Virus record (IMG/VR): IMGVR_UViG_3300027509_000013
Coordinates: 68,000-131,999 of that record
Source of the DNA: a virus
Lineage: Duplodnaviria > Caudoviricetes
Length of the DNA stretch: 64,000 bases
Direction: 5' to 3' (one strand)
The stretch's first letter is position 1; the number at the start of each line of letters is the position of its first letter. The notes under the pieces were generated by a model that made no database searches, was not told the DNA's origin, and saw only the letters and a list, made by a program, of their open reading frames with translations. This document shows, one piece after another, positions 3,596 through 12,801 of the stretch. Made by a program: the position numbers and the translations under genes.

Positions 3596-3631
3596 GCCCC
3601 TCATGAGTGAAAGCTTATGAGGGGTTTTTTT
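3596..3631 (+). terminator. intrinsic terminator/attenuator before tRNA operon 1
   Basis: GCCCCTCATGAGT-GAAA-GCTTATGAGGGG followed by T7. Confidence 0.85.
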
Positions 3632-3645
3632 ATTTTGATCAATAT

Positions 3646-3721
3646 AGGGATGTAGCTTAGTGGCCAGAGCGCGTATTTTGGGAATACGAAGGCGAGTGTT
3701 CAAATCACTCCATCCCTACCA
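3646..3721 (+). tRNA. tRNA-Pro(TGG)
   Basis: Cloverleaf; anticodon arm CGTAT-TTTGGGA-ATACG; encoded CCA. Confidence 0.95.
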
Positions 3722-3726
3722 ATTAT

Positions 3727-3802
3727 GGTAGCCTTGTGCTGTTTTGCAATGCAGCCGGACTGTGGATCTGGTGCGACGGGTTGGATTCCCGAGGTTTACC
3801 CA
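3727..3802 (+). tRNA. tRNA-His(GTG), atypical D and T loops
   Basis: CCGGA-CTGTGGA-TCTGG; T loop TTGGATT; imperfect acceptor stem; ends CCA. Confidence 0.8.
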
Positions 3803-3807
3803 ATAAT

Positions 3808-3880
3808 AGCCATGTAGCTCAACTGGCAGAGCGCTTCCCTACGAAGGAAGGGGTTGGGAGTTCGACTCTCTCCATGGTTA
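3808..3880 (+). tRNA. tRNA-Arg(ACG)
   Basis: CTTCC-CTACGAA-GGAAG; canonical D and T arms. Confidence 0.95.
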
Positions 3881-3924
3881 CTAAAATTTTAAAAATCGAC
3901 GGCGCTTCGCGCCTAGATACACAT

Positions 3925-4004
3925 GGTCAGGTAGCCACCCTCCTCTTCTAAAGGAGTAAGTGTAATTGGAGCTGAAAATCGGGGTTCGAATCCCTGTCTG
4001 ATCA
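3925..4004 (+). tRNA. tRNA-Arg(TCT), D-armless with long variable region
   Basis: Acceptor GGTCAGG/TCTGATC; CTCCT-CTTCTAA-AGGAG; T arm CGGGG-TTCGAAT-CCCTG; only 8 nt between acceptor and anticodon arms. Confidence 0.8.
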
Positions 4005-4054
4005 CTATTAAATAATAAATTTATTATTGTATATTTGTAAAAAATATATTAATT

Positions 4055-4321
4055 ATGACAGCATCGGAATTGTTAAATAAAGTACTGACTAAAGTATTTG
4101 CACTTCAATCTTTATCTGGTAAAATCAGGATAAAGACTGAAGAAAATAAAATGCAAGAACTAAATCTGTTTATTGTCTACTCTAATCATCCTGTTCAGTA
4201 TAACAATAAAATAAGTATTCTGAATTCTGATGATCATGATCTTGAAGAAATTTGGGAACAATTCAAAGAAGATGTTGATACCAATATAAGAGCAATTGAT
4301 CATATCGTTAATATGCCTTAA
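4055..4321 (+). CDS. hypothetical protein
   Basis: 88-aa ATG ORF with TATATTTG at 4030-4037. Confidence 0.7.
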   Translation: MTASELLNKVLTKVFALQSLSGKIRIKTEENKMQELNLFIVYSNHPVQYNNKISILNSDDHDLEEIWEQFKEDVDTNIRAIDHIVNMP

Positions 4322-4330
4322 ATTACACAA

Positions 4331-4403
4331 TGATGGTTAGCATAACTGGTTAGTGCATCGGGTTTTGGTCCCGAGGGATGGAGTTCGAGTCTCCGACCGT
4401 CAT
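4331..4403 (+). tRNA. tRNA-Gln(TTG)
   Basis: TCGGG-TTTTGGT-CCCGA; T1-A72. Confidence 0.95.
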
Positions 4404-4418
4404 CTAAATTACTGTTTT

Positions 4419-4715
4419 ATGAATGATACAAACATACCTGGTCCTTCCTTTACGGACTTTCTATATGCTGATATACCTACATTTACATCAGGTGAAGGTG
4501 TAGATACTCTTGAATATTTCAAACCTATCATACCAGATCCTGGTCCTAGACAGTTTAATTTATTTGTAGGCACCGAAGGATTCTTTCTTATTAGTGACGG
4601 GTTTAAAGATGAAAGAGATCGATCAGAACGTAAACACTGGCTAGCTCAAAGAATAGCTTACAGGAACCTGATCGATGGTAGAGAATATTACTCACGATTT
4701 AATAGCCCAGTATGA
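4419..4715 (+). CDS. hypothetical protein (start MNDTNIP)
   Basis: ATG just after tRNA-Gln. Confidence 0.6.
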   Translation: MNDTNIPGPSFTDFLYADIPTFTSGEGVDTLEYFKPIIPDPGPRQFNLFVGTEGFFLISDGFKDERDRSERKHWLAQRIAYRNLIDGREYYSRFNSPV

Positions 4716-4997
4716 GAAGATTTATAGGTCAGGAGATAGATGTCGGATCATTCTATACTTTAAGATACAGGTGGGTTTACCTGCCAAATGAGGCCTACAT
4801 CGAAGTTCCGCGGCAAATCCGACCATCAGTGCACTCAAACAAACAAAACATCCTCTACAGCGGCCAAAAACTACTTATCCGATGAATAAATACTACAAAC
4901 AAGCTATTATTGAAAGATATCAAAGCCACAATGGATGCTTATCATGCTTTATATTTATTATCTGGATTTTAGTAATGCTTATTGCATTGATACTTTC

Positions 4998-5252
4998 TTA
5001 CTCATGAAAAAACAAGAAATAAATCCAAGCACCAATAAATAAAAGTACAGGTATAAAACCAAAAATGAAATAACGAAATTTTCTATAGTATATCATTTTC
5101 TTCTCCTTTATTATAAGCTGATCATAATAGTAGTTAATAGCTTTGGGAATAGAACTACTCCAATAACCAAATGATATAGAAGATTCCTCGTAGTGCTCGA
5201 GAGCTCTTTTCCTCAAATCTTCTAGTGGTGTTTGTGCTGCTTGATTATCCAT
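4998..5252 (-). CDS. small membrane protein
   Basis: C-terminal hydrophobic segment. Confidence 0.65.
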   Translation of the reverse strand: MDNQAAQTPLEDLRKRALEHYEESSISFGYWSSSIPKAINYYYDQLIIKEKKMIYYRKFRYFIFGFIPVLLFIGAWIYFLFFHE

Positions 5253-5691
5253 TGTCTAATTTTATTTTAGCATCTATTTCTAAACCAATTATATCATGCA
5301 ACTCTTTCCTCAGATTCTTAGCTGTCTTTTCTGCTTCCAGTATCCCAGATATCAATTTCTTATGTCTTAATTTAGGATCGTGAATCCTTTTATCTCTAGG
5401 CTTGCTAATTGCAACCGAAGCCAAATCAAAACCTAAATTAGCTATTGCAACATTCAAATCATCTAGATATAAATCTCTAGGAAAACCAAATGCATTTCCA
5501 TCAGTTAATTGCTTGAAAATAATCATTTGAGGAACTGGATTGATTTCATGCTGTTCGCAGATTATTTTAGCCTCTTCTAAGCTTTGCTTGCTGTATCCAA
5601 CATAAGTGCCTCCAGTCCTAGAAGCACATTTTAAAAGATGTATGGTTTTACCACTTCTTCTTGATTTATATAGTATTTGTACATTATTCAT
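5245..5691 (-). CDS. small P-loop NTPase-like protein
   Basis: RRSGKT Walker-A-like and LYLDD Walker-B-like motifs. Confidence 0.6.
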   Translation of the reverse strand: MNNVQILYKSRRSGKTIHLLKCASRTGGTYVGYSKQSLEEAKIICEQHEINPVPQMIIFKQLTDGNAFGFPRDLYLDDLNVAIANLGFDLASVAISKPRDKRIHDPKLRHKKLISGILEAEKTAKNLRKELHDIIGLEIDAKIKLDNG

Positions 5692-5872
5692 TTTTTGATT
5701 TTATTTGTTCTTTAAGCCATAAAAAAGCTATTTCTTTTGATTCAAAATCAGAGCTTGCATCTGATACATATACACCAACTCTTTGTTTAGTGCTTTTAGC
5801 TATAAATGATACATAATGCTCTGTTCCATTATGCTCTACCTCTGTTAATTCTATAAATCTATCTAAAGTCAT
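5684..5872 (-). CDS. hypothetical protein
   Basis: 62-aa ORF directly after a TATATTTG motif (5877-5884, minus). Confidence 0.65.
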   Translation of the reverse strand: MTLDRFIELTEVEHNGTEHYVSFIAKSTKQRVGVYVSDASSDFESKEIAFLWLKEQIKSKNE

Positions 5873-5902
5873 AAATCAAATATACAAAAAATTTTTATTT
5901 AG

Positions 5903-5977
5903 TACACCAGGTGGGCTACGATCCCACGATCCCTCGATTAAAAGTCGAGTACTTTAGTCCAACTAAGCTACTGGTGC
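5903..5977 (-). tRNA. tRNA-Lys(TTT)
   Basis: CTCGA-CTTTTAA-TCGAG; T loop ATCGTAG. Confidence 0.92.
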
Positions 5978-5979
5978 AT

Positions 5980-6055
5980 TGGAGAACGTAGACGGGCTCG
6001 AACCGTCGTATCCGGATTTGCAGTCCGGCGCCTATGCCATCTCAGCCATACGTTC
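5980..6055 (-). tRNA. tRNA-Cys(GCA)
   Basis: CCGGA-CTGCAAA-TCCGG; U73; encoded CCA. Confidence 0.95.
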
Positions 6056-6060
6056 ATTAG

Positions 6061-6128
6061 CACAGGATGAATGAGTCGAACACTCTCGTAAGGGTTTGGA
6101 ATCCTTTTAGCTCCACAGCCTATCCTGC
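6061..6128 (-). tRNA. tRNA-Trp(CCA), shortened D arm
   Basis: AAGGA-TTCCAAA-CCCTT; D arm GCT-GTGG-AGC; G73. Confidence 0.85.
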
Positions 6129-6133
6129 ATAAA

Positions 6134-6216
6134 TGATTGATCCTCGGATTCGAACCGACCTCTGCCATTGCCACTCACTTTTCAGCGCGGGAGGAATCGA
6201 ACCTCAAAATCAATCA
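6134..6216 (-). ncRNA. tRNA-like RNA with two T-arm hairpins
   Basis: Closing stem TGATTGAT/ATCAATCA encloses GAGG-TTCGATT-CCTC and TCGG-TTCGAAT-CCGA. Confidence 0.55.
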
Positions 6217-6219
6217 TAG

Positions 6220-6291
6220 CGACAATGGACAGATTCGAACTGCCGTCCTCGGAACTTCACCCCGATGCTAAGCCACCTCAGCTACATTGTC
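6220..6291 (-). tRNA. tRNA-Phe(GAA)
   Basis: TCGGG-GTGAAGT-TCCGA. Confidence 0.92.
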
Positions 6292-6295
6292 AAAT

Positions 6296-6331
6296 AAAAA
6301 AAGCCTCGCAAAATTAATTACGAGGCTTTTT
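6296..6331 (-). terminator. intrinsic terminator/attenuator before tRNA operon 2
   Basis: Minus strand AGCCTCGTAA-loop-TTGCGAGGCT followed by a T-tract. Confidence 0.85.
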
Positions 6332-6353
6332 CATATGATCTAATCACATAGGT

Positions 6354-6413
6354 TTAGCAATCTCGCAATTCATGCAAAGAGAAACAAAACCATTTTTTTG
6401 TAATTAAAATCAT
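6354..6413 (-). CDS. putative attenuator leader peptide 2 (MILITKKWFCFSLHELRDC)
   Basis: ATG...TAA; AAA AAA TGG TTT TGT TTC matches downstream Phe/Trp/Cys/Lys tRNAs. Confidence 0.85.
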   Translation of the reverse strand: MILITKKWFCFSLHELRDC

Positions 6414-6417
6414 AATG

Positions 6418-6437
6418 CAAATATAGTGTTATATTTG
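6418..6437. promoter_or_regulatory. divergent Bacteroidota-type promoters
   Basis: TATATTTG on minus (6418-6425) and on plus (6430-6437). Confidence 0.65.
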
Positions 6438-6449
6438 TTAAAAAATAAC

Positions 6450-6776
6450 ATGATATCAAAACTTTCTTCAGAAGTAATCGATTTCGTAGCTAAAGTAGAA
6501 GCCAAATATCTTGAATACATGCAGGAGAGATTCCCTAATAATCGTATTGAGGAATTTGAAGTAACTGAAAACAAAAAGTACGTTAAGGTTATTCAATCAG
6601 GTGCCTTCTGCTTTATCAATAGAGAAAATGGGGATATCTATATGGCTAAAACATTTAGTTCTCCATCATTAAAAAATCCTCGAGGTAATTTATTCTCTAA
6701 ACAACTGGGAATGGAAGCGATATCTGAAAGATCTGCAGGAGGTAGAATCCATCCCCATATTAGGTATCTAAGATAA
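6450..6776 (+). CDS. conserved-looking small phage protein
   Basis: KKYVKV...FINRENGDIYMA...PRGNL pattern resembles small phage proteins; own promoter motif. Confidence 0.7.
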   Translation: MISKLSSEVIDFVAKVEAKYLEYMQERFPNNRIEEFEVTENKKYVKVIQSGAFCFINRENGDIYMAKTFSSPSLKNPRGNLFSKQLGMEAISERSAGGRIHPHIRYLR

Positions 6777-6780
6777 AAAG

Positions 6781-6851
6781 CGGGCCATCCCGGGCTCGAA
6801 CCGAGGATAACGGAGAGACAGTCCGTCGTATTACCACTATACTAATGGCCC
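6781..6851 (-). tRNA. tRNA-Asp(GTC)
   Basis: ACGGA-CTGTCTC-TCCGT; G73. Confidence 0.92.
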
Positions 6852-6855
6852 ATTG

Positions 6856-6929
6856 AGCCTAAGCAGGGATTCGAACCCCGGACATCTTCATTACAAATGA
6901 AGCGCTCTGACCAGCTGAGCTACTTAGGC
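6856..6929 (-). tRNA. tRNA-Thr(TGT)
   Basis: CTTCA-TTTGTAA-TGAAG. Confidence 0.95.
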
Positions 6930-7366
6930 AAGTTTTTATTTAAATGAGACATTTTACCTCCACATCTTCGGCTACATGTAGGTGTTTTTCCCATTGATAG
7001 TTTATGATTTATATTTTTACAGTCTTTTGAAAATTCATTTTTACAAATTGGACAAATTAAGGTTATCATTGTTTTAGATTTCCCAATATGCTTATTGTGC
7101 TTCACTATATTCTCTTTTCTGGAAAGGATTTGAAGATTTGATATAGAATCATTCATTTTATTTTCATCTATATGATCTACATGCTCTTCTGGCCTTAAAT
7201 ACCTTCTTACATGACAACTCATTATATATCTAGCATATGAAGTCGAAGTTTTTGTCCCATCTCTCCGAACCAATGCGACAACTCTTCTTGGTTCTTTGTT
7301 TGTATTTACATATCCTGCGATGTAATCTTTATAATATGGCCATCTTAATACTATTTTTGTTGACAT
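6920..7366 (-). CDS. HNH homing endonuclease inside the tRNA array
   Basis: HVDHIDENKMNDSISNLQIL HNH motif and C-terminal CPIC...CSRRC; stop overlaps the tRNA-Thr 5' end. Confidence 0.9.
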   Translation of the reverse strand: MSTKIVLRWPYYKDYIAGYVNTNKEPRRVVALVRRDGTKTSTSYARYIMSCHVRRYLRPEEHVDHIDENKMNDSISNLQILSRKENIVKHNKHIGKSKTMITLICPICKNEFSKDCKNINHKLSMGKTPTCSRRCGGKMSHLNKNLPK

Positions 7367-7386
7367 ATAAATTTATTTACTTAATG

Positions 7387-7463
7387 TATCTGCGGAGAGA
7401 CTTGAACTCTCATGTGACCAATTACGCTTTCGACAAGATATAAGCTTGAGGCGATACGCAGAC
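7387..7463 (-). tRNA. tRNA-Ile(TAT), D-armless with long variable region
   Basis: GTCTGCG/CGCAGAT acceptor; CAAG-CTTATAT-CTTG; GAGAG-TTCAAGT-CTCTC. Confidence 0.8.
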
Positions 7464-7475
7464 AATATAACATTG

Positions 7476-7546
7476 TAGTTCTGGCAGGACTTGAACCTGC
7501 GTCCATGGTATGTAACACCACTGCTCGGCCACTGAGCTACAGAACT
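7476..7546 (-). tRNA. tRNA-Val(TAC)
   Basis: GTGGT-GTTACAT-ACCAT. Confidence 0.92.
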
Positions 7547-7619
7547 AGAGCCGCTTTCATTTATAACGCGCCAACGTCACCTTCTAAAAAGGCAGGTCAT
7601 TACAAGCGGGACCTGTTTG

Positions 7620-7693
7620 AGCACGAATTCGGGATCGAACCGAATCTATTCTAGCTTGGAAGGCTAGCGCACCACCATTTATGCGTCTCGTGC
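7620..7693 (-). tRNA. tRNA-Gly(TCC)
   Basis: CTAGC-CTTCCAA-GCTAG; U73. Confidence 0.92.
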
Positions 7694-7797
7694 TTATGTA
7701 CCTCAAGTTGATCTTAAAACTCTTCCTAGCTCCCTAAATGGGAGGGCTACAGAAATTCAAATCAAAATGGCTTGGGCCATCAGGTAATTTCAGTTAG

Positions 7798-7874
7798 TTG
7801 GCACAATAGGATTCGAACCTATGTTTTCAACCGCTATCTTAGTCATGCGTATCAGGCATGCCGATTATGTGCCA
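7798..7874 (-). tRNA. tRNA-Ile(GAT), D-armless with long variable region
   Basis: TGGCACA/TGTGCCA; CATGC-CTGATAC-GCATG; ATAGG-TTCGAAT-CCTAT. Confidence 0.8.
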
Positions 7875-7879
7875 ATATG

Positions 7880-7953
7880 CTGCTTTGCAAGGGATCGAAC
7901 CTTGGACCTACGGATTAACAGTCCGCCGCTCTAACCAACTGAGCTACAAAGCA
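7880..7953 (-). tRNA. tRNA-Asn(GTT)
   Basis: GCGGA-CTGTTAA-TCCGT; G73. Confidence 0.95.
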
Positions 7954-8012
7954 ATGTAAGGGTAATCGTAAGATCTCGACGGCCACTTCGGACACCCTAA
8001 AATCGATTATTG

Positions 8013-8085
8013 TGGAGAAGAAGGGCTTCGAACCCTCAACCTTCTGATTGCAAATCAGATGCACGTCCTCTTGTGCTTCAACCCC
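8013..8085 (-). tRNA. tRNA-Ala(TGC)
   Basis: TCTGA-TTTGCAA-TCAGA; G3-U70 present; two U-U mismatches in the acceptor stem. Confidence 0.9.
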
Positions 8086-8088
8086 AAA

Positions 8089-8162
8089 TGGCGGGAGAGG
8101 GAGTCGAACCCTCGTCTTGGGCTTATGAGACCCAGCTGGAACCACCTCCAGTCTACCCCGCA
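8089..8162 (-). tRNA. tRNA-Met(CAT), initiator-like
   Basis: TGGGT-CTCATAA-GCCCA; 1:72 mismatch and a GCGGGG acceptor as in tRNA-fMet. Confidence 0.85.
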
Positions 8163-8175
8163 ATATATTTTCCAT

Positions 8176-8213
8176 AAAAAAAGGGACCAGAAAATTAATC
8201 CTGATCCCTTTTT
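8176..8213 (-). terminator. intrinsic terminator/attenuator before tRNA operon 3
   Basis: Minus strand AGGGATCAGGA-loop-TTCTGGTCCCT followed by a T-tract. Confidence 0.85.
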
Positions 8214-10336: not shown

Positions 10337-10769
10337 TATTAAACCGTTTTAACTCTCCACAATTTTGTGCATATTTAATAACTCCTTCCAATACATCTTT
10401 AGTCATTGATTCAATGTCATCATCAGTCATGTCTACACCCAATATTGGACCTTGAACTTTAACTGAAATACTTTGAATTTGACCTATTTTTACGAATCCA
10501 CATTTGTGAGGACAGTTAAATACAGAAACTATGATGTTTTTGTCTTTACCTTCTAATGGCATTTTTACGTGTAAGTAACGTGGATCATTTGGTAATTGAT
10601 AAGGATTATATTTCTCTTTCAGTGCTTCAAGCACAGCATAATAAGCCTTTTTTCTGCCTGGCATTATGTTTCCTGATAAATCTAAAGATTCCTTTAGAAG
10701 AGTTATCTCCTTATCATTCAAATCATTCATGTTGTCGCATACATCCTTAATTGCTTCTCTTATTTCCAT
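10329..10769 (-). CDS. hypothetical protein (start MEIREAIK)
   Basis: ATG at 10769, downstream of the tRNA-like RNA. Confidence 0.65.
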   Translation of the reverse strand: MEIREAIKDVCDNMNDLNDKEITLLKESLDLSGNIMPGRKKAYYAVLEALKEKYNPYQLPNDPRYLHVKMPLEGKDKNIIVSVFNCPHKCGFVKIGQIQSISVKVQGPILGVDMTDDDIESMTKDVLEGVIKYAQNCGELKRFNND

Positions 10770-10782
10770 TATTGTGTATTTG

Positions 10783-10900
10783 AGGCCAGAGCAGGACTCG
10801 AACCTGCAACACATCTTATATCGCTAGAAAATAAAGGTGTCTTAAAAATAAGAAGGATACTCCTAAAAAGTACTGCGTCTACCAATTCCGCCACCTGGCC
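10783..10900 (-). ncRNA. Leu-type tRNA-like RNA with TTA anticodon-like loop and ~50-nt insertion
   Basis: GGCCAGG-TGGCGGAATTGGTAGACGC...GCAGG-TTCGAGT-CCTGC-TCTGGCC; arm GTACT-TTTTAGG-AGTAT. Confidence 0.7.
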
Positions 10901-10916
10901 TTAGATTTTAAAAATC

Positions 10917-10953
10917 GTCAGGGGACGATCAATATCCTTCAGAGTCCCCTGAC
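10917..10953. other. strong hairpin
   Basis: GTCAGGGGAC...GTCCCCTGAC perfect 10-bp inverted repeat. Confidence 0.6.
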
Positions 10954-10964
10954 TTTATATGGTA

Positions 10965-11195
10965 CTATGCTTTTACAAGTATTTATGCTGACAATATAAA
11001 GAATCGCTCTACCCCTAAGCTACCCGACCTTGATTGTTTTTTAGAGGTCGGGATGGGATTCGAACCCATGACCTATTCCTTTAGTTTACTTGTAGCCTTT
11101 CCCATGTATAATCCTGATGCTAAAGCTATTACCTCAACATTAAATCTAATATCTAGCATTTAATGAATCTGAACGTAATGCTTATGCTTCAGGTA
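10965..11195 (-). ncRNA. circularly permuted tRNA-like RNA (Y-RNA/YrlA-like topology) with a 5' hexamer-repeat tract
   Basis: Order is T arm (ATGGG-TTCGAAT-CCCAT), loop-closed acceptor (CCCGACCT/AGGTCGGG), D arm (TAGCTTAGGGGTAGAGC), with closing stem TACAAGTA/TACTTGTA. Confidence 0.75.
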
Positions 11196-11197
11196 AT

Positions 11198-11989
11198 TTA
11201 CTTTTTATGCAAATATGCAAACAAACTGTCAGCAGTAATGCTTGACTTTACACTTTCTACTTCATTAGCTTCTTTCAAAGCCTGAATAACAGCAACTCTA
11301 AGCTTAGATATTCTTGACAATACCTCTGCTTTTTCTCTTTGAGAAAAAGCTCCAGTAAATATTTGACGAGAACCCTCACCTAATGTAACAGTAGTTGTTT
11401 TTTGAGCAACTTTAGGAGTATAGCTAGCTCCATCAATCTTAGAAATATTTGGATCTTCTAAGATGTAATCGACTTTTTCAGTTGTTTTATTCTCAGTACG
11501 AACTAATGGGTTTTCATAGATGCCTTTTCTTCCTTCATAAGACTCTTCTACAGTAGGATTCCACTCAACAGCATCTGATCTAACTGGTATGCTTGAATAC
11601 ATACTCTTAAATTCAGGTGAGTCAATCAAAGATTTTAATCTAAGTAATTCTAAAGTAGACAAATCCTTCCACTTAATGTCATCAAAAATCAAATCAGCTT
11701 TAGCTGCGCCAGAAGCATTAGTAGCTTCTTGATCAAAAAGACTATCTATATAATCCTTAGAACTTAAAGAAAAGTAATCTAATTTTTCATCAACAGTAGT
11801 AACCACTAATTGATTGCTTCTAAGTTTTGGGTCATCTACAGTTTGATCTTTTGGCTCATAAGTTTTCTTTTCACCAAAAAAAGCACCTTGATTTTTAGTG
11901 AAAAACTTAATGTAATTTTGAAGTGCTCTTTTAAATTCCTGACCAAGAGCATCGGTCTTTGCTAATAATACATTTAATTTTACATTCAT
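11198..11989 (-). CDS. uncharacterised protein directly upstream of the permuted tRNA-like RNA
   Basis: 263-aa ORF with its own TACATTTG motif (12008-12015). Confidence 0.85.
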   Translation of the reverse strand: MNVKLNVLLAKTDALGQEFKRALQNYIKFFTKNQGAFFGEKKTYEPKDQTVDDPKLRSNQLVVTTVDEKLDYFSLSSKDYIDSLFDQEATNASGAAKADLIFDDIKWKDLSTLELLRLKSLIDSPEFKSMYSSIPVRSDAVEWNPTVEESYEGRKGIYENPLVRTENKTTEKVDYILEDPNISKIDGASYTPKVAQKTTTVTLGEGSRQIFTGAFSQREKAEVLSRISKLRVAVIQALKEANEVESVKSSITADSLFAYLHKK

Positions 11990-12061
11990 TATAATTCAAT
12001 TTTGAATCAAATGTAAACAAAATATTTTTTAATTAAGCAATAAATAAATATTTTTTTAAAA

Positions 12062-12094
12062 ATAGCTGACATCGGTATTAACGATATCAGCTAT
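12062..12094 (-). terminator. hairpin after tRNA operon 4
   Basis: ATAGCTGA...TCAGCTAT inverted repeat followed by Ts on the minus strand. Confidence 0.55.
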
Positions 12095-12098
12095 ATAG

Positions 12099-12186
12099 CG
12101 GTAAGTGAGAGGATCGAACTCTCAAGGCCTTTCAGCTCGCCATGTTTCAAATATGGTTCCGTCGCCTGCCATCGGATTGACCTACC
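12099..12186 (-). tRNA. tRNA-Ser(TGA)
   Basis: CCATA-TTTGAAA-CATGG; long variable arm; G73. Confidence 0.9.
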
Positions 12187-12192
12187 ATGTTG

Positions 12193-12281
12193 CAGAAGGA
12201 GAGGGATTCGAACCCTCGCTACCAATTAAAGTAGACCTCAGATTAGCAGTCTGGTACTATTACCAACTCAGTCACCCTTCT
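12193..12281 (-). tRNA. tRNA-Ser(GCT)
   Basis: CAGA-CTGCTAA-TCTG; long variable arm; G73. Confidence 0.92.
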
Positions 12282-12285
12282 ATAG

Positions 12286-12369
12286 TGGGAATAGATGGAG
12301 TCGAACCACCCGAGTCATTATAACAACAGATTTACAGTCTGTCCCGCTACCCCTACGGTATATACTCCC
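12286..12369 (-). tRNA. tRNA-Tyr(GTA)
   Basis: ACAGA-CTGTAAA-TCTGT; variable arm. Confidence 0.95.
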
Positions 12370-12373
12370 ATTG

Positions 12374-12447
12374 TACACACGATCGGACTTGAACCGATAA
12401 TCAACGCATTTTAAGTACGTCGGCGTTGCCATTTAGCCTACGTGTGC
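12374..12447 (-). tRNA. tRNA-Leu(TAA), short variable loop
   Basis: ACGTA-CTTAAAA-TGCGT; 5-nt variable loop. Confidence 0.88.
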
Positions 12448-12453
12448 TAAAAG

Positions 12454-12537
12454 TACCGAAGGTGGGACTCGAACCCACAAAGGTGTCACTTTCTAAAAGT
12501 GTGCAGTATGCCTAATTCCCACTTAACCCACTTCGGC
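12454..12537 (-). tRNA. tRNA-Leu(TAG), enlarged D region and short variable loop
   Basis: CACT-TTTAGAA-AGTG; GTGGG-TTCGAGT-CCCAC. Confidence 0.82.
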
Positions 12538-12541
12538 AAAT

Positions 12542-12580
12542 AAAAAAAGCCCATTGCGATATTTCACGCAATGGGCTTTT
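12542..12580 (-). terminator. intrinsic terminator/attenuator before tRNA operon 4
   Basis: Minus strand AGCCCATTGCG-loop-CGCAATGGGCT followed by a T-tract. Confidence 0.88.
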
Positions 12581-12603
12581 GTAGTTCTTAACTTATTTCT
12601 ACA

Positions 12604-12669
12604 TCAATACCGGTTGCGTTCGTCGTTAGACAAATAGAGCAGACTCGATAATGATGATGTATTTTTCAT
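12604..12669 (-). CDS. putative attenuator leader peptide 4 (MKNTSSLSSLLYLSNDERNRY)
   Basis: ATG...TGA; TCA TCA TTA TCG AGT CTG CTC TAT TTG TCT matches Leu/Leu/Tyr/Ser/Ser tRNAs. Confidence 0.85.
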   Translation of the reverse strand: MKNTSSLSSLLYLSNDERNRY

Positions 12670-12680
12670 TGTATTATTTG

Positions 12681-12752
12681 TAACCCGTGAGATAATCGAA
12701 ATCTCCGCTTCACCTTGAAAAGATGACGTCCTGACCACTAGACCAACGGGCC
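12681..12752 (-). tRNA. tRNA-Glu(TTC)
   Basis: TCATC-TTTTCAA-GGTGA. Confidence 0.92.
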
Positions 12753-12793
12753 TAGGTTCCTCAATTTCTATGTTAATATTGTTTCTCACAGTG

Positions 12794-12801
12794 CAAATGT
12801 A
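12794..12801 (-). promoter_or_regulatory. Bacteroidota-type -7 promoter element for tRNA-Glu and operon 4
   Basis: TACATTTG. Confidence 0.6.

Follow-up and report, generated by a model that had tools for sequence, protein, structure and literature searches.

Does a tRNA gene with no room for a D hairpin still encode a tRNA for bacterial translation? The question is raised by a 64-kb stretch of viral DNA (hereafter, the window), the second half of the 132-kb IMG/VR virus record IMGVR_UViG_3300027509_000013, which CheckV rates as complete. Within a tRNA cluster, this window carries one tRNA-Arg(UCU) gene and two tRNA-Ile genes (UAU and GAU; hereafter c1, c2, and c3, see Table 1) that an earlier note had described as D-armless tRNAs of shared, rearranged architecture. 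The finding is real and extends far beyond these three genes. Judged from their sequences, c1–c3 are probably working elongator tRNAs of a phage-borne family with a permuted, or rewired, D domain.

Three tRNA genes without a D hairpin

Based on their sequences, c1, c2, and c3 each have a 7-bp acceptor stem with a discriminator base, a 5-bp anticodon stem with a 7-nt loop containing U33 and a purine at position 37, and a T arm, as in a cloverleaf, whereas the D hairpin (positions 10–25) is missing and 7–8 nt lie between the acceptor and anticodon stems. The coordinates, the short connector, the GG motif after the anticodon arm, and the intact other arms were all as previously read. Apart from irregular pairs in c2 (see below), the three remaining arms are regular, with T loops that fit UUCRANY.

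Genes of this shape largely escape standard searches. ARAGORN called none of the three among its 18 tRNAs in the window. The Rfam tRNA model (RF00005) scored c1 at 30.5 bits (gathering score 29) and c3 at 39.7 bits, in the latter case by fitting 15 D-arm model positions to 4 nt and inserting 18 nt before the T arm.

A widespread family in phage genomes

The first relatives came from a blastn comparison of c1 with cultured phage genomes, in which positions 20–70 matched Pseudomonas phage PA11 and its relatives at 84% identity, with about 280 further matching records from Vibrio phages. The layout of c1, with Arg anticodons (UCU and ACG), recurs without tRNA annotation at the loci found in phage TC6 and Vibrio phage D419. 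At the rewired tRNA-Arg(ACG) of D419 (L005, 65,929-66,008; L numbers denote collected loci), the numbering of the tRNA locus tags passes from _0009 directly to _0011, and the gene may have been predicted by the annotation pipeline and then discarded. The cultured crAss-like phage Kehishuvirus 'tikkala' has a relative of c2, which lies without annotation between its tRNA-Trp and tRNA-Met genes. E. coli genomes gave no blastn match to c1.

A 19-base pattern taken from the shared 3' part retrieved 48 IMG/VR stretches, which yielded 33 distinct sequences of 79–81 nt, all with Arg anticodons, and from these 33 sequences (alignment A1) the covariance model R1 was built. This single model recovered all three genes of the window (scores in Table 1), in line with the shared architecture proposed for them, while the best canonical tRNA of the window reached 26.7 bits; over the whole 132-kb genome, R1 reported exactly three members. 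It matched all 38 IMG/VR records that were searched whole, and on these records and the fetched loci it revealed more members with other anticodons, including Ile-UAU and Ile-GAU. The three Ile and Arg tRNAs of phage 933W were considered as candidate members and rejected, all of them being canonical with R1 scores of at most 18.2 bits.

An anticodon-blind pattern (GUAA-NN-GG, 8–16 nt, T-loop motif) matched at least 120 IMG/VR stretches. Among the 120 matches listed, 47 contained at least one member, and the others were canonical tRNAs, matched through their anticodon loop or a class II variable arm, or were not tRNAs. When the 19-base pattern was run on one genome per species of 185,579 prokaryote species, 20 stretches were found, made up of seven members, nine canonical tRNA-Arg(CCG/GCG) genes, and four non-tRNA matches. 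In the nine canonical genes the motif GGAGCUGAAAAU spans the end of the anticodon loop, the stem, and the variable loop, a caveat on pattern matches and a possible hint of the origin of the family. The seven prokaryote members lie mostly in tRNA clusters on small contigs of metagenome-assembled genomes. Two of them are rewired tRNA-Arg(UCU) genes in large contigs of Ochrobactrum/Brucella haematophila isolates (L059:6519-6598 and L069:7152-7231); a PHROGs search of the surroundings of the former gave no clear result for or against a prophage.

To collect members irrespective of anticodon, all collected loci and the genome were parsed for a 7-bp acceptor stem followed by U8 and a short connector, for a stem of 5 bp closing a 7-nt loop with a purine at position 37, and for a T arm with at least 14 nt ahead of it. 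Filtering on the motif U-A-R..GG left 115 distinct sequences, one of which was a mis-parsed canonical tRNA. The family therefore comprises at least 114 distinct sequences from at least 106 loci, mostly IMG/VR phage contigs. The filter lost a few known members whose segment starts with UAAGGG (e.g., the PA11 copy), and these were restored in the alignments.

Anticodons of the 114 sequences are restricted to Arg (94: UCU 49, ACG 29, UCG 9, CCU 5, GCG 2) and Ile (19: UAU 10, GAU 9), with a single CAU. By connector length they fall into an 8-nt class (52/114, all Arg, including c1) and a 7-nt class (62/114; Arg, all Ile, and the CAU member, including c2 and c3). The RNAs are 74–91 nt long. At the upper end, two 91-nt rewired tRNA-Arg(ACG) genes (L019:918-1008 and L031:1952-2042) have an extra linker hairpin that itself covaries (GGGUA-GAAA-UACCU versus GGGCA-GCAA-UGCCU). 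Locus L113 (11632-11885) carries three consecutive rewired genes with anticodons GAU, UAU (89 nt; additional insert in the linker), and CAU; because the last has the Ile-type U after GG and discriminator A, it may encode a lysidine-dependent tRNA-Ile2. At L017:2203-2281, a 3' half of the family type (GGAGCUGAAAAU, T arm, and CCA) stands without a recognizable anticodon arm or nearby 5' acceptor strand.

Annotation of the family is poor. ARAGORN calls overlapped 13 of 131 copies, with the correct anticodon in four, and only 8 of 25 relatives (19 loci) reached the gathering score of the Rfam tRNA model, all at 30–39 bits. Rfam 15 holds no family for rewired tRNAs; just the general tRNA model responds, weakly.

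Compensatory changes indicate a re-wired D arm

Pairing was analyzed in A1 (33 sequences), in A3 (64 sequences, including c2 and c3), and, for a second helix (see below), in the 52 sequences of the 8-nt class. In A1, 97.0% of cells are paired and the covariation score is 0.836, compared to 0.204 after shuffling (0/500 shuffles reach it). In A3, the corresponding values are 95.6% and 0.918 versus 0.227 (0/500), with slid controls at or below 0.188, and 20 of the 21 pairs changed on both sides. The acceptor, anticodon, and T stems covary strongly in both connector classes, including all seven acceptor pairs in A1 and A3.

Rather than being single-stranded, the connector contributes three bases to a helix with the three that directly precede the U-A-R motif. 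Pair 13-38 of A1 is formed in all 33 sequences (GC 23, AU 6, CG 2, UA 2), pair 11-42 of A3 in 64/64, and pair 12-41 of A3 in 63/64 (CG 31, GC 19, UA 12, AU 1). Considered alone, the connector helix and the Levitt-like pair (see below) are 90.2% paired versus 65.4% after shuffling, with a covariation score of 0.560 versus 0.131 (0/500) and slid controls at or below 0.104. The closest relatives of c2 (L076:152-228 and L090:4019-4095) illustrate such exchanges, with an identical anticodon stem and CCC/GGG or CUC/GAG in the helix instead; relatives of c3 are found at L113:11632-11708 and L076:69-145.

In the 8-nt class, a second 3-bp helix (hereafter, the top helix) joins A9-N10-N11 to the three bases after GG-A. 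Its pairs are 9-49 (AU in 52/52), 10-48 (52/52 paired; GC 46, AU 5, CG 1), and 11-47 (51/52 paired; CG 45, UA 2, AU 2, UG 2, UU 1). A self-paired variable arm, as an alternative use of the post-anticodon segment, was rejected: the alignments contain no conserved self-pairing, and the segment pairs with the connector instead.

Because the connector pairs with the post-anticodon segment through compensatory changes, the D arm is re-wired rather than lost. The label 'D-armless' of the earlier note is accordingly imprecise: it holds in that no D hairpin lies between the acceptor and anticodon arms, and fails in that the arm's pairing is kept with another partner. The covariance model and phage-genome search which that note had proposed as a check thus returned homologues whose stems and connector helix covary.

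Core and isotype signatures of canonical tRNAs

A3 shows no variation at U8, A9, or the U-A of the motif (64/64). Column invariance was also read from A2, a MAFFT alignment of 118 sequences in which the connector classes are off register by one column and which was not used for pair counts; here U8, A9, and the U, A, and first G of the motif are invariant (118/118), and the second G is present in at least 90%. The third motif base and the base immediately preceding the T stem vary together (A/U in 107, G/C in 7, mixed in 0; n = 114), a result for which the search patterns fixed at most one of the two bases and the seven G/C cases, including c3, were found with neither fixed. The same purine/pyrimidine pair is AU in 59 and GC in 5 sequences of A3, and in the window the motif and last linker base read UAA...U in c1 and c2 and UAG...C in c3. 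The R15-Y48 Levitt pair of canonical tRNAs shows such covariation, and the third motif base and the last linker base behave as this pair.

The base after GG differs between isotypes, being A in 94/94 Arg members and U in 18/19 Ile members and in the CAU member. Canonical tRNAs from the same loci show a similar bias after their D-loop GG, with A in 41/50 Arg tRNAs versus 70/790 of other isotypes, and U in 26/42 Ile tRNAs. A20 is the main D-loop identity element for bacterial arginyl-tRNA synthetase (ArgRS), and A73 is an identity element for isoleucyl-tRNA synthetase (IleRS); the discriminator is A in 19/19 Ile members. This isotype-specific base, together with the covariation in 114/114 sequences, supports the earlier note in calling the GG motif beyond the anticodon arm D-loop-like: the motif acts like that of a real D loop. 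U33 is invariant, position 37 is A in 110/114, and CCA is encoded in 70/114.

Table 1 Features of the rewired tRNA genes c1–c3, in window coordinates
Feature	Coordinates	Strand	Details
c1, rewired tRNA-Arg(UCU)	3925-4004	+	80 nt; 8-nt-connector class; R1 88.9 bits (E = 1.3e-22)
c1 acceptor stem and connector		+	7-bp stem; 8-nt connector UAGCCACC
c1 connector strand A9-C14	3933-3938	+	AGC with GCU (3971-3973), top helix; CAC with GUG (3960-3962), D-stem-like helix
c1 anticodon arm	3940-3956	+	CUCCU/CUUCUAA/AGGAG; anticodon TCT at 3947-3949; all 5 stem pairs covary in A1
c1 post-anticodon segment		+	23 nt, UAAGUGUAAUUGGAGCUGAAAAU; motif UAAUUGG
c1 D-loop-like bulge	3963-3970	+	UAAUUGGA; A14-, R15-, G18G19-, and A20-like positions
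c1 linker	3974-3979	+	GAAAAU; final U matches the R15-like A (Levitt-like pair)
c1 T arm and 3' end	3980-4004	+	CGGGG/UUCGAAU/CCCUG; acceptor 3' strand; discriminator A; CCA not encoded
c2, rewired tRNA-Ile(UAU)	7387-7463	-	77 nt; 7-nt connector UAUCGCC; 6-nt linker; R1 37.2 bits (E = 3.9e-8); in A3
c2 anticodon	7440-7442	-	Loop CUUAUAU
c2 D-stem-like helix	7451-7453 with 7425-7427	-	CGC with GCG
c2 post-anticodon segment		-	21 nt, CGAAAGCGUAAUUGGUCACAU; D-loop-like UAAUUGG at 7418-7424; T loop UUCAAGU
c3, rewired tRNA-Ile(GAU)	7798-7874	-	77 nt; 7-nt connector UAAUCGG; R1 41.5 bits (E = 2.5e-9)
c3 anticodon	7851-7853	-	Loop CUGAUAC; T loop UUCGAAU
c3 D-stem-like helix	7863-7864 with 7837-7838	-	U11-A38 and C12-G37
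c3 post-anticodon segment		-	21 nt, ACUAAGAUAGCGGUUGAAAAC; D-loop-like UAGCGG at 7831-7836
c3 linker	7823-7830	-	UUGAAAAC; last C matches the G of UAG

Genome context and role in the phage

The tRNA cluster of the window occupies positions 3600-8200 and 10700-12800, and c1, c2, and c3 sit in its gaps on the same strand as the neighboring tRNAs. The 18 canonical tRNAs called in the window by ARAGORN serve 18 amino acids; Ile and His lack one, and the anticodon UCU does not occur among them. Over the whole genome (18 ARAGORN calls, 20 Rfam hits), no canonical tRNA for Ile or with anticodon UCU was found, and tRNA-His was found nowhere. Judged by their anticodons, c1–c3 would read AGA/AGG, AUA, and AUU/AUC. 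In 89 long open reading frames (33,924 codons), AGA and AGG make up 65% and 16% of the 1408 Arg codons (81% together), and the 2351 Ile codons are divided among ATA (38%), ATT (42%), and ATC (20%), so that codons read by the three genes comprise about a tenth of all codons. Across the family, few members (10 of 131, a lower bound because many of the loci are fragments) share their collected stretch with a canonical tRNA of the same anticodon.

None of c1–c3 encodes CCA and no CCA-adding enzyme was found in the whole genome; the host enzyme would therefore have to accept them. The genes around the cluster encode an HNH endonuclease, a DNA methylase, an RNase H, and proteins with domains of unknown function or otherwise of unknown function, with no tRNA enzyme, dedicated synthetase, or modifier among those near the cluster. 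A search with the DNA methylase beside the cluster gave three related loci, all without any tRNA. The large terminase shares 26% identity over 96% of the query with that of Cellulophaga phage phi14:2 and also matches crAss-like phages, the nearest cultured relatives, and a marine Bacteroidota host is therefore likely; a terminase search of IMG/VR found no relatives.

Proposed structure and alternative explanations

Canonical tRNAs run from the acceptor stem through the D stem 5' strand, D loop, D stem 3' strand, anticodon arm, and variable loop to the T arm. The order in the family is: acceptor strand, U8-A9 with 1–2 nt, one strand of the D-stem-like helix, anticodon arm, 2–5 nt, the other helix strand, a D-loop-like U-A-R-N-N-G-G-N, a linker ending in a pyrimidine, and the T arm. 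The bulge beyond the connector helix would then correspond to the D loop, and the helix to a D stem with swapped connectivity, in which the strand entering the anticodon stem arrives directly from the acceptor stem and the strand entering the D loop arrives from the 3' side of the anticodon stem. We infer that the 5-bp anticodon stem, one interposed layer, and the helices (3 or 3 + 3 bp) stack coaxially in place of the anticodon/D stack, giving an arm about as long as the canonical stack with its 8-14 and 15-48 layers. The bulged GG would reach the canonical T loop and lock onto it, and the resulting L shape would still be accepted by RNase P, the host CCA enzyme, ArgRS or IleRS, EF-Tu, and the ribosome. 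Such a gene may have arisen by tandem duplication of the D and anticodon arms, after which the first copy would have lost its D 5' strand and loop, and the second its D 3' strand and its anticodon arm. Why the family is confined to Arg and Ile invites speculation: a single rewired tRNA-Arg may have founded it and changed its anticodon (one substitution converts UCU to UAU), or the confinement may reflect what ArgRS and IleRS tolerate.

Several observations weigh against working tRNAs of this fold. The third pair of the connector helix is weak, formed in 40/64 sequences of A3 (pair 13-40) and 22/33 of A1, and c3 forms just two of the three pairs; a free RNAalifold run on A3 predicted the acceptor, anticodon, and T stems and omitted the 3-bp connector helix. 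In c2, G1.U72 and a U.U first anticodon-stem pair (U27.U43) are irregular, two U.U pairs occur in the acceptor stem of the copy from the cultured crAss-like phage, and the Rfam tRNA model gives no match to c2 at E ≤ 10. Single-sequence folding of c1, c2, and c3 was not significant (z = -1.0, -1.75, and -1.5). In favor of the proposed folds, their excess of 1.8–2.7 kcal/mol over the minimum free energy is ordinary for tRNAs because the energy model ignores their tertiary contacts. Most members were fetched by sequence patterns, and conservation of the pattern bases is thus partly forced. The L shape and the GG/T-loop contact are drawn by analogy, and the window DNA was matched in one marine metagenome DNA run, perhaps the sample of its origin, with no RNA run listed.

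Three other explanations were considered. The missing ARAGORN calls and the low (30–40 bits) or absent Rfam scores would fit decaying tRNA pseudogenes, yet 114 distinct sequences hold every stem through compensatory changes, two-sided in 20 of the 21 pairs of A3, and the layout is identical in unrelated Pseudomonas, Vibrio, and Bacteroides phages, which makes decay very improbable. Deletion of the D arm in the style of mitochondrial tRNAs, leaving a floppy variable region without a D-like helix or elbow contact, is how Rfam aligns c3 (D arm deleted, insert in the variable region), and it would agree with the omission of the connector helix by RNAalifold. We give this explanation little credence, given that the connector covaries with the post-anticodon segment and the second helix covaries too, that U-A-R..GG is invariant or nearly so with an R that covaries with the base before the T stem in every case, and that the T loops are canonical UUCRANY, compared to the degenerate loops that a review describes for armless mitochondrial tRNAs (PMC7609411).

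It is also improbable, if somewhat easier to envisage, that the RNAs are tRNA-like molecules acting outside translation, as decoys for a host tRNA nuclease or modification enzyme, as primers, or as regulators. A role of this kind would account for the departure from the cloverleaf, the form known to be accepted by every translation factor, and the window has other odd tRNA-like elements, such as a YrlA-like match of 34 bits (gathering score 69). The canonical anticodon loops, with their constant U33 and near-constant A37, argue for decoding instead, as do the anticodons of two amino acids with matching 20-like and discriminator bases, and the encoded CCA in over half of the members. Moreover, c1–c3 are the sole Ile- and AGR-reading tRNA genes found in a phage with 18 other tRNA genes, and few members of the family have a canonical tRNA of the same anticodon alongside. 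Working elongator tRNAs with a rewired D domain thus remain the reading that we favor.

A more far-reaching version of this reading is doubtful. It holds that phages infecting many bacterial phyla share a lineage of translating permuted-D tRNAs, the first natural non-cloverleaf tRNAs on bacterial ribosomes, and that the rewiring is kept as it makes them poor substrates for host tRNA nucleases or defenses while ArgRS, IleRS, and the ribosome accept them. Evasion of tRNA-recognizing defenses, which the earlier note had raised as a possible purpose, gained nothing from the analysis, which found no linked gene and no target nuclease. No nuclease is known to be avoided by the rewired D domain.

Other tRNA-like elements

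Further unusual elements were seen in the window, all on the minus strand. At 10783-10900, a 118-nt Rfam tRNA hit (42.5 bits, no ARAGORN call) has a Leu-like D arm; tentatively, it can be read as having the anticodon loop UUUUAGG with anticodon UUA, which would read the stop codon UAA, and as having about 45 nt inserted ahead of the T arm. The long open reading frames of the window read normally under code 11. The Y RNA-like (YrlA) match at 10985-11105 includes a T-arm-like module (11053-11070). An Rfam tRNA hit at 12454-12537 (33.5 bits, no ARAGORN call) shares 83% blastn identity over 58 nt with an annotated tRNA-Leu of Acinetobacter phage Acibel004 and may have the anticodon UAG, with an unusually long stretch ahead of the anticodon arm. 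Missed by both ARAGORN and Rfam, the region 12095-12191 has a cloverleaf-like minimum free energy fold with a 7-bp acceptor stem, a D arm, the T loop UUCGAUC, and a 9-nt anticodon-like loop.

Between tRNA-Trp and tRNA-Phe, a 90-nt region (6129-6218; folding z-score -2.6) forms a long terminal helix and contains two T-arm-like motifs, GGUUCGAUUCC and GGUUCGAAUCC. The ARAGORN tRNA-Trp(CCA) at 6060-6128 is 69 nt long, has a very small D arm, and was not reported by Rfam at E ≤ 10. Outside the window, a 353-kb phage contig carries an 85-nt tRNA-like gene (L077:69-153; G011:206368-206452) whose D arm is normal; 13 additional nucleotides are present, and the place of the anticodon arm is taken by a 5-bp stem closing a 6-nt loop.

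Comparison with known tRNAs

Permuted tRNA genes of the red alga Cyanidioschyzon merolae place the 3' half before the 5' half, and processing restores the cloverleaf. The family shares with them a non-canonical segment order; it differs in that its acceptor strands are in normal order and its internal permutation should persist in the mature RNA. Some T5- and T4-like phage tRNAs escape host anticodon nucleases by changes in the anticodon loop or stem. Like these, the family members are phage-encoded, unlike host versions, and located in tRNA clusters, whereas the T5- and T4-like tRNAs keep the ordinary cloverleaf and differ at single positions. In class II tRNAs (Leu, Ser, Tyr), at least 20 nt likewise separate the anticodon and T arms, but combine a self-contained variable hairpin with a D arm; in the Arg and Ile members of the family the D hairpin is missing and the segment pairs with the 5' connector.

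D-armless mitochondrial tRNAs (e.g., mammalian or nematode mitochondrial tRNA-Ser) likewise have a short connector and no D hairpin. They are described as missed by general tRNA finders (tRNAscan-SE 2.0, PMC8450103) and as short and flexible, having lost the D-loop/T-loop lock and co-evolved with organellar factors (PMC7609411). The phage RNAs differ from them in length (74–91 nt), canonical T loop, GG motif, paired connector, and post-anticodon segment (21–23 nt in c1–c3), and they would have to work with the ordinary bacterial machinery.

In full-text searches of the literature, neither D-armless nor permuted tRNAs were found described for phages or bacteria, and in a 2020 review of non-canonical tRNAs the words 'phage' and 'virus' are absent (PMC7609411). 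According to a 2024 paper, all known bacterial tRNAs are cloverleaves, and an engineered tRNA lacking the D arm was used by a laboratory-evolved E. coli that needed host adaptation (PMC11551756). That tRNA is likewise a non-cloverleaf in bacterial translation, but is artificial, whereas the family is natural and widespread in phages. A 2023 survey lists tRNA-like candidate RNAs in IMG/VR, some of which may overlap with the family (PMC10690425).

Implications

Taken together, the three unannotated genes are part of a large, overlooked family, and the sequences suggest that bacterial translation may use non-cloverleaf tRNAs. If the family members are charged and decode, they would be a natural and common exception to the cloverleaf rule for bacterial translation, and the L shape would be buildable from another strand order. 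Because ARAGORN and Rfam miss most copies and the cultured copies are unannotated, counts of phage tRNA-Arg and tRNA-Ile genes would be biased, as would inferences about codon usage or hosts that rest on them. The family also offers natural scaffolds for orthogonal tRNA engineering and opens to direct test which of the proteins that bind tRNA recognize the path of the backbone and which the shape.

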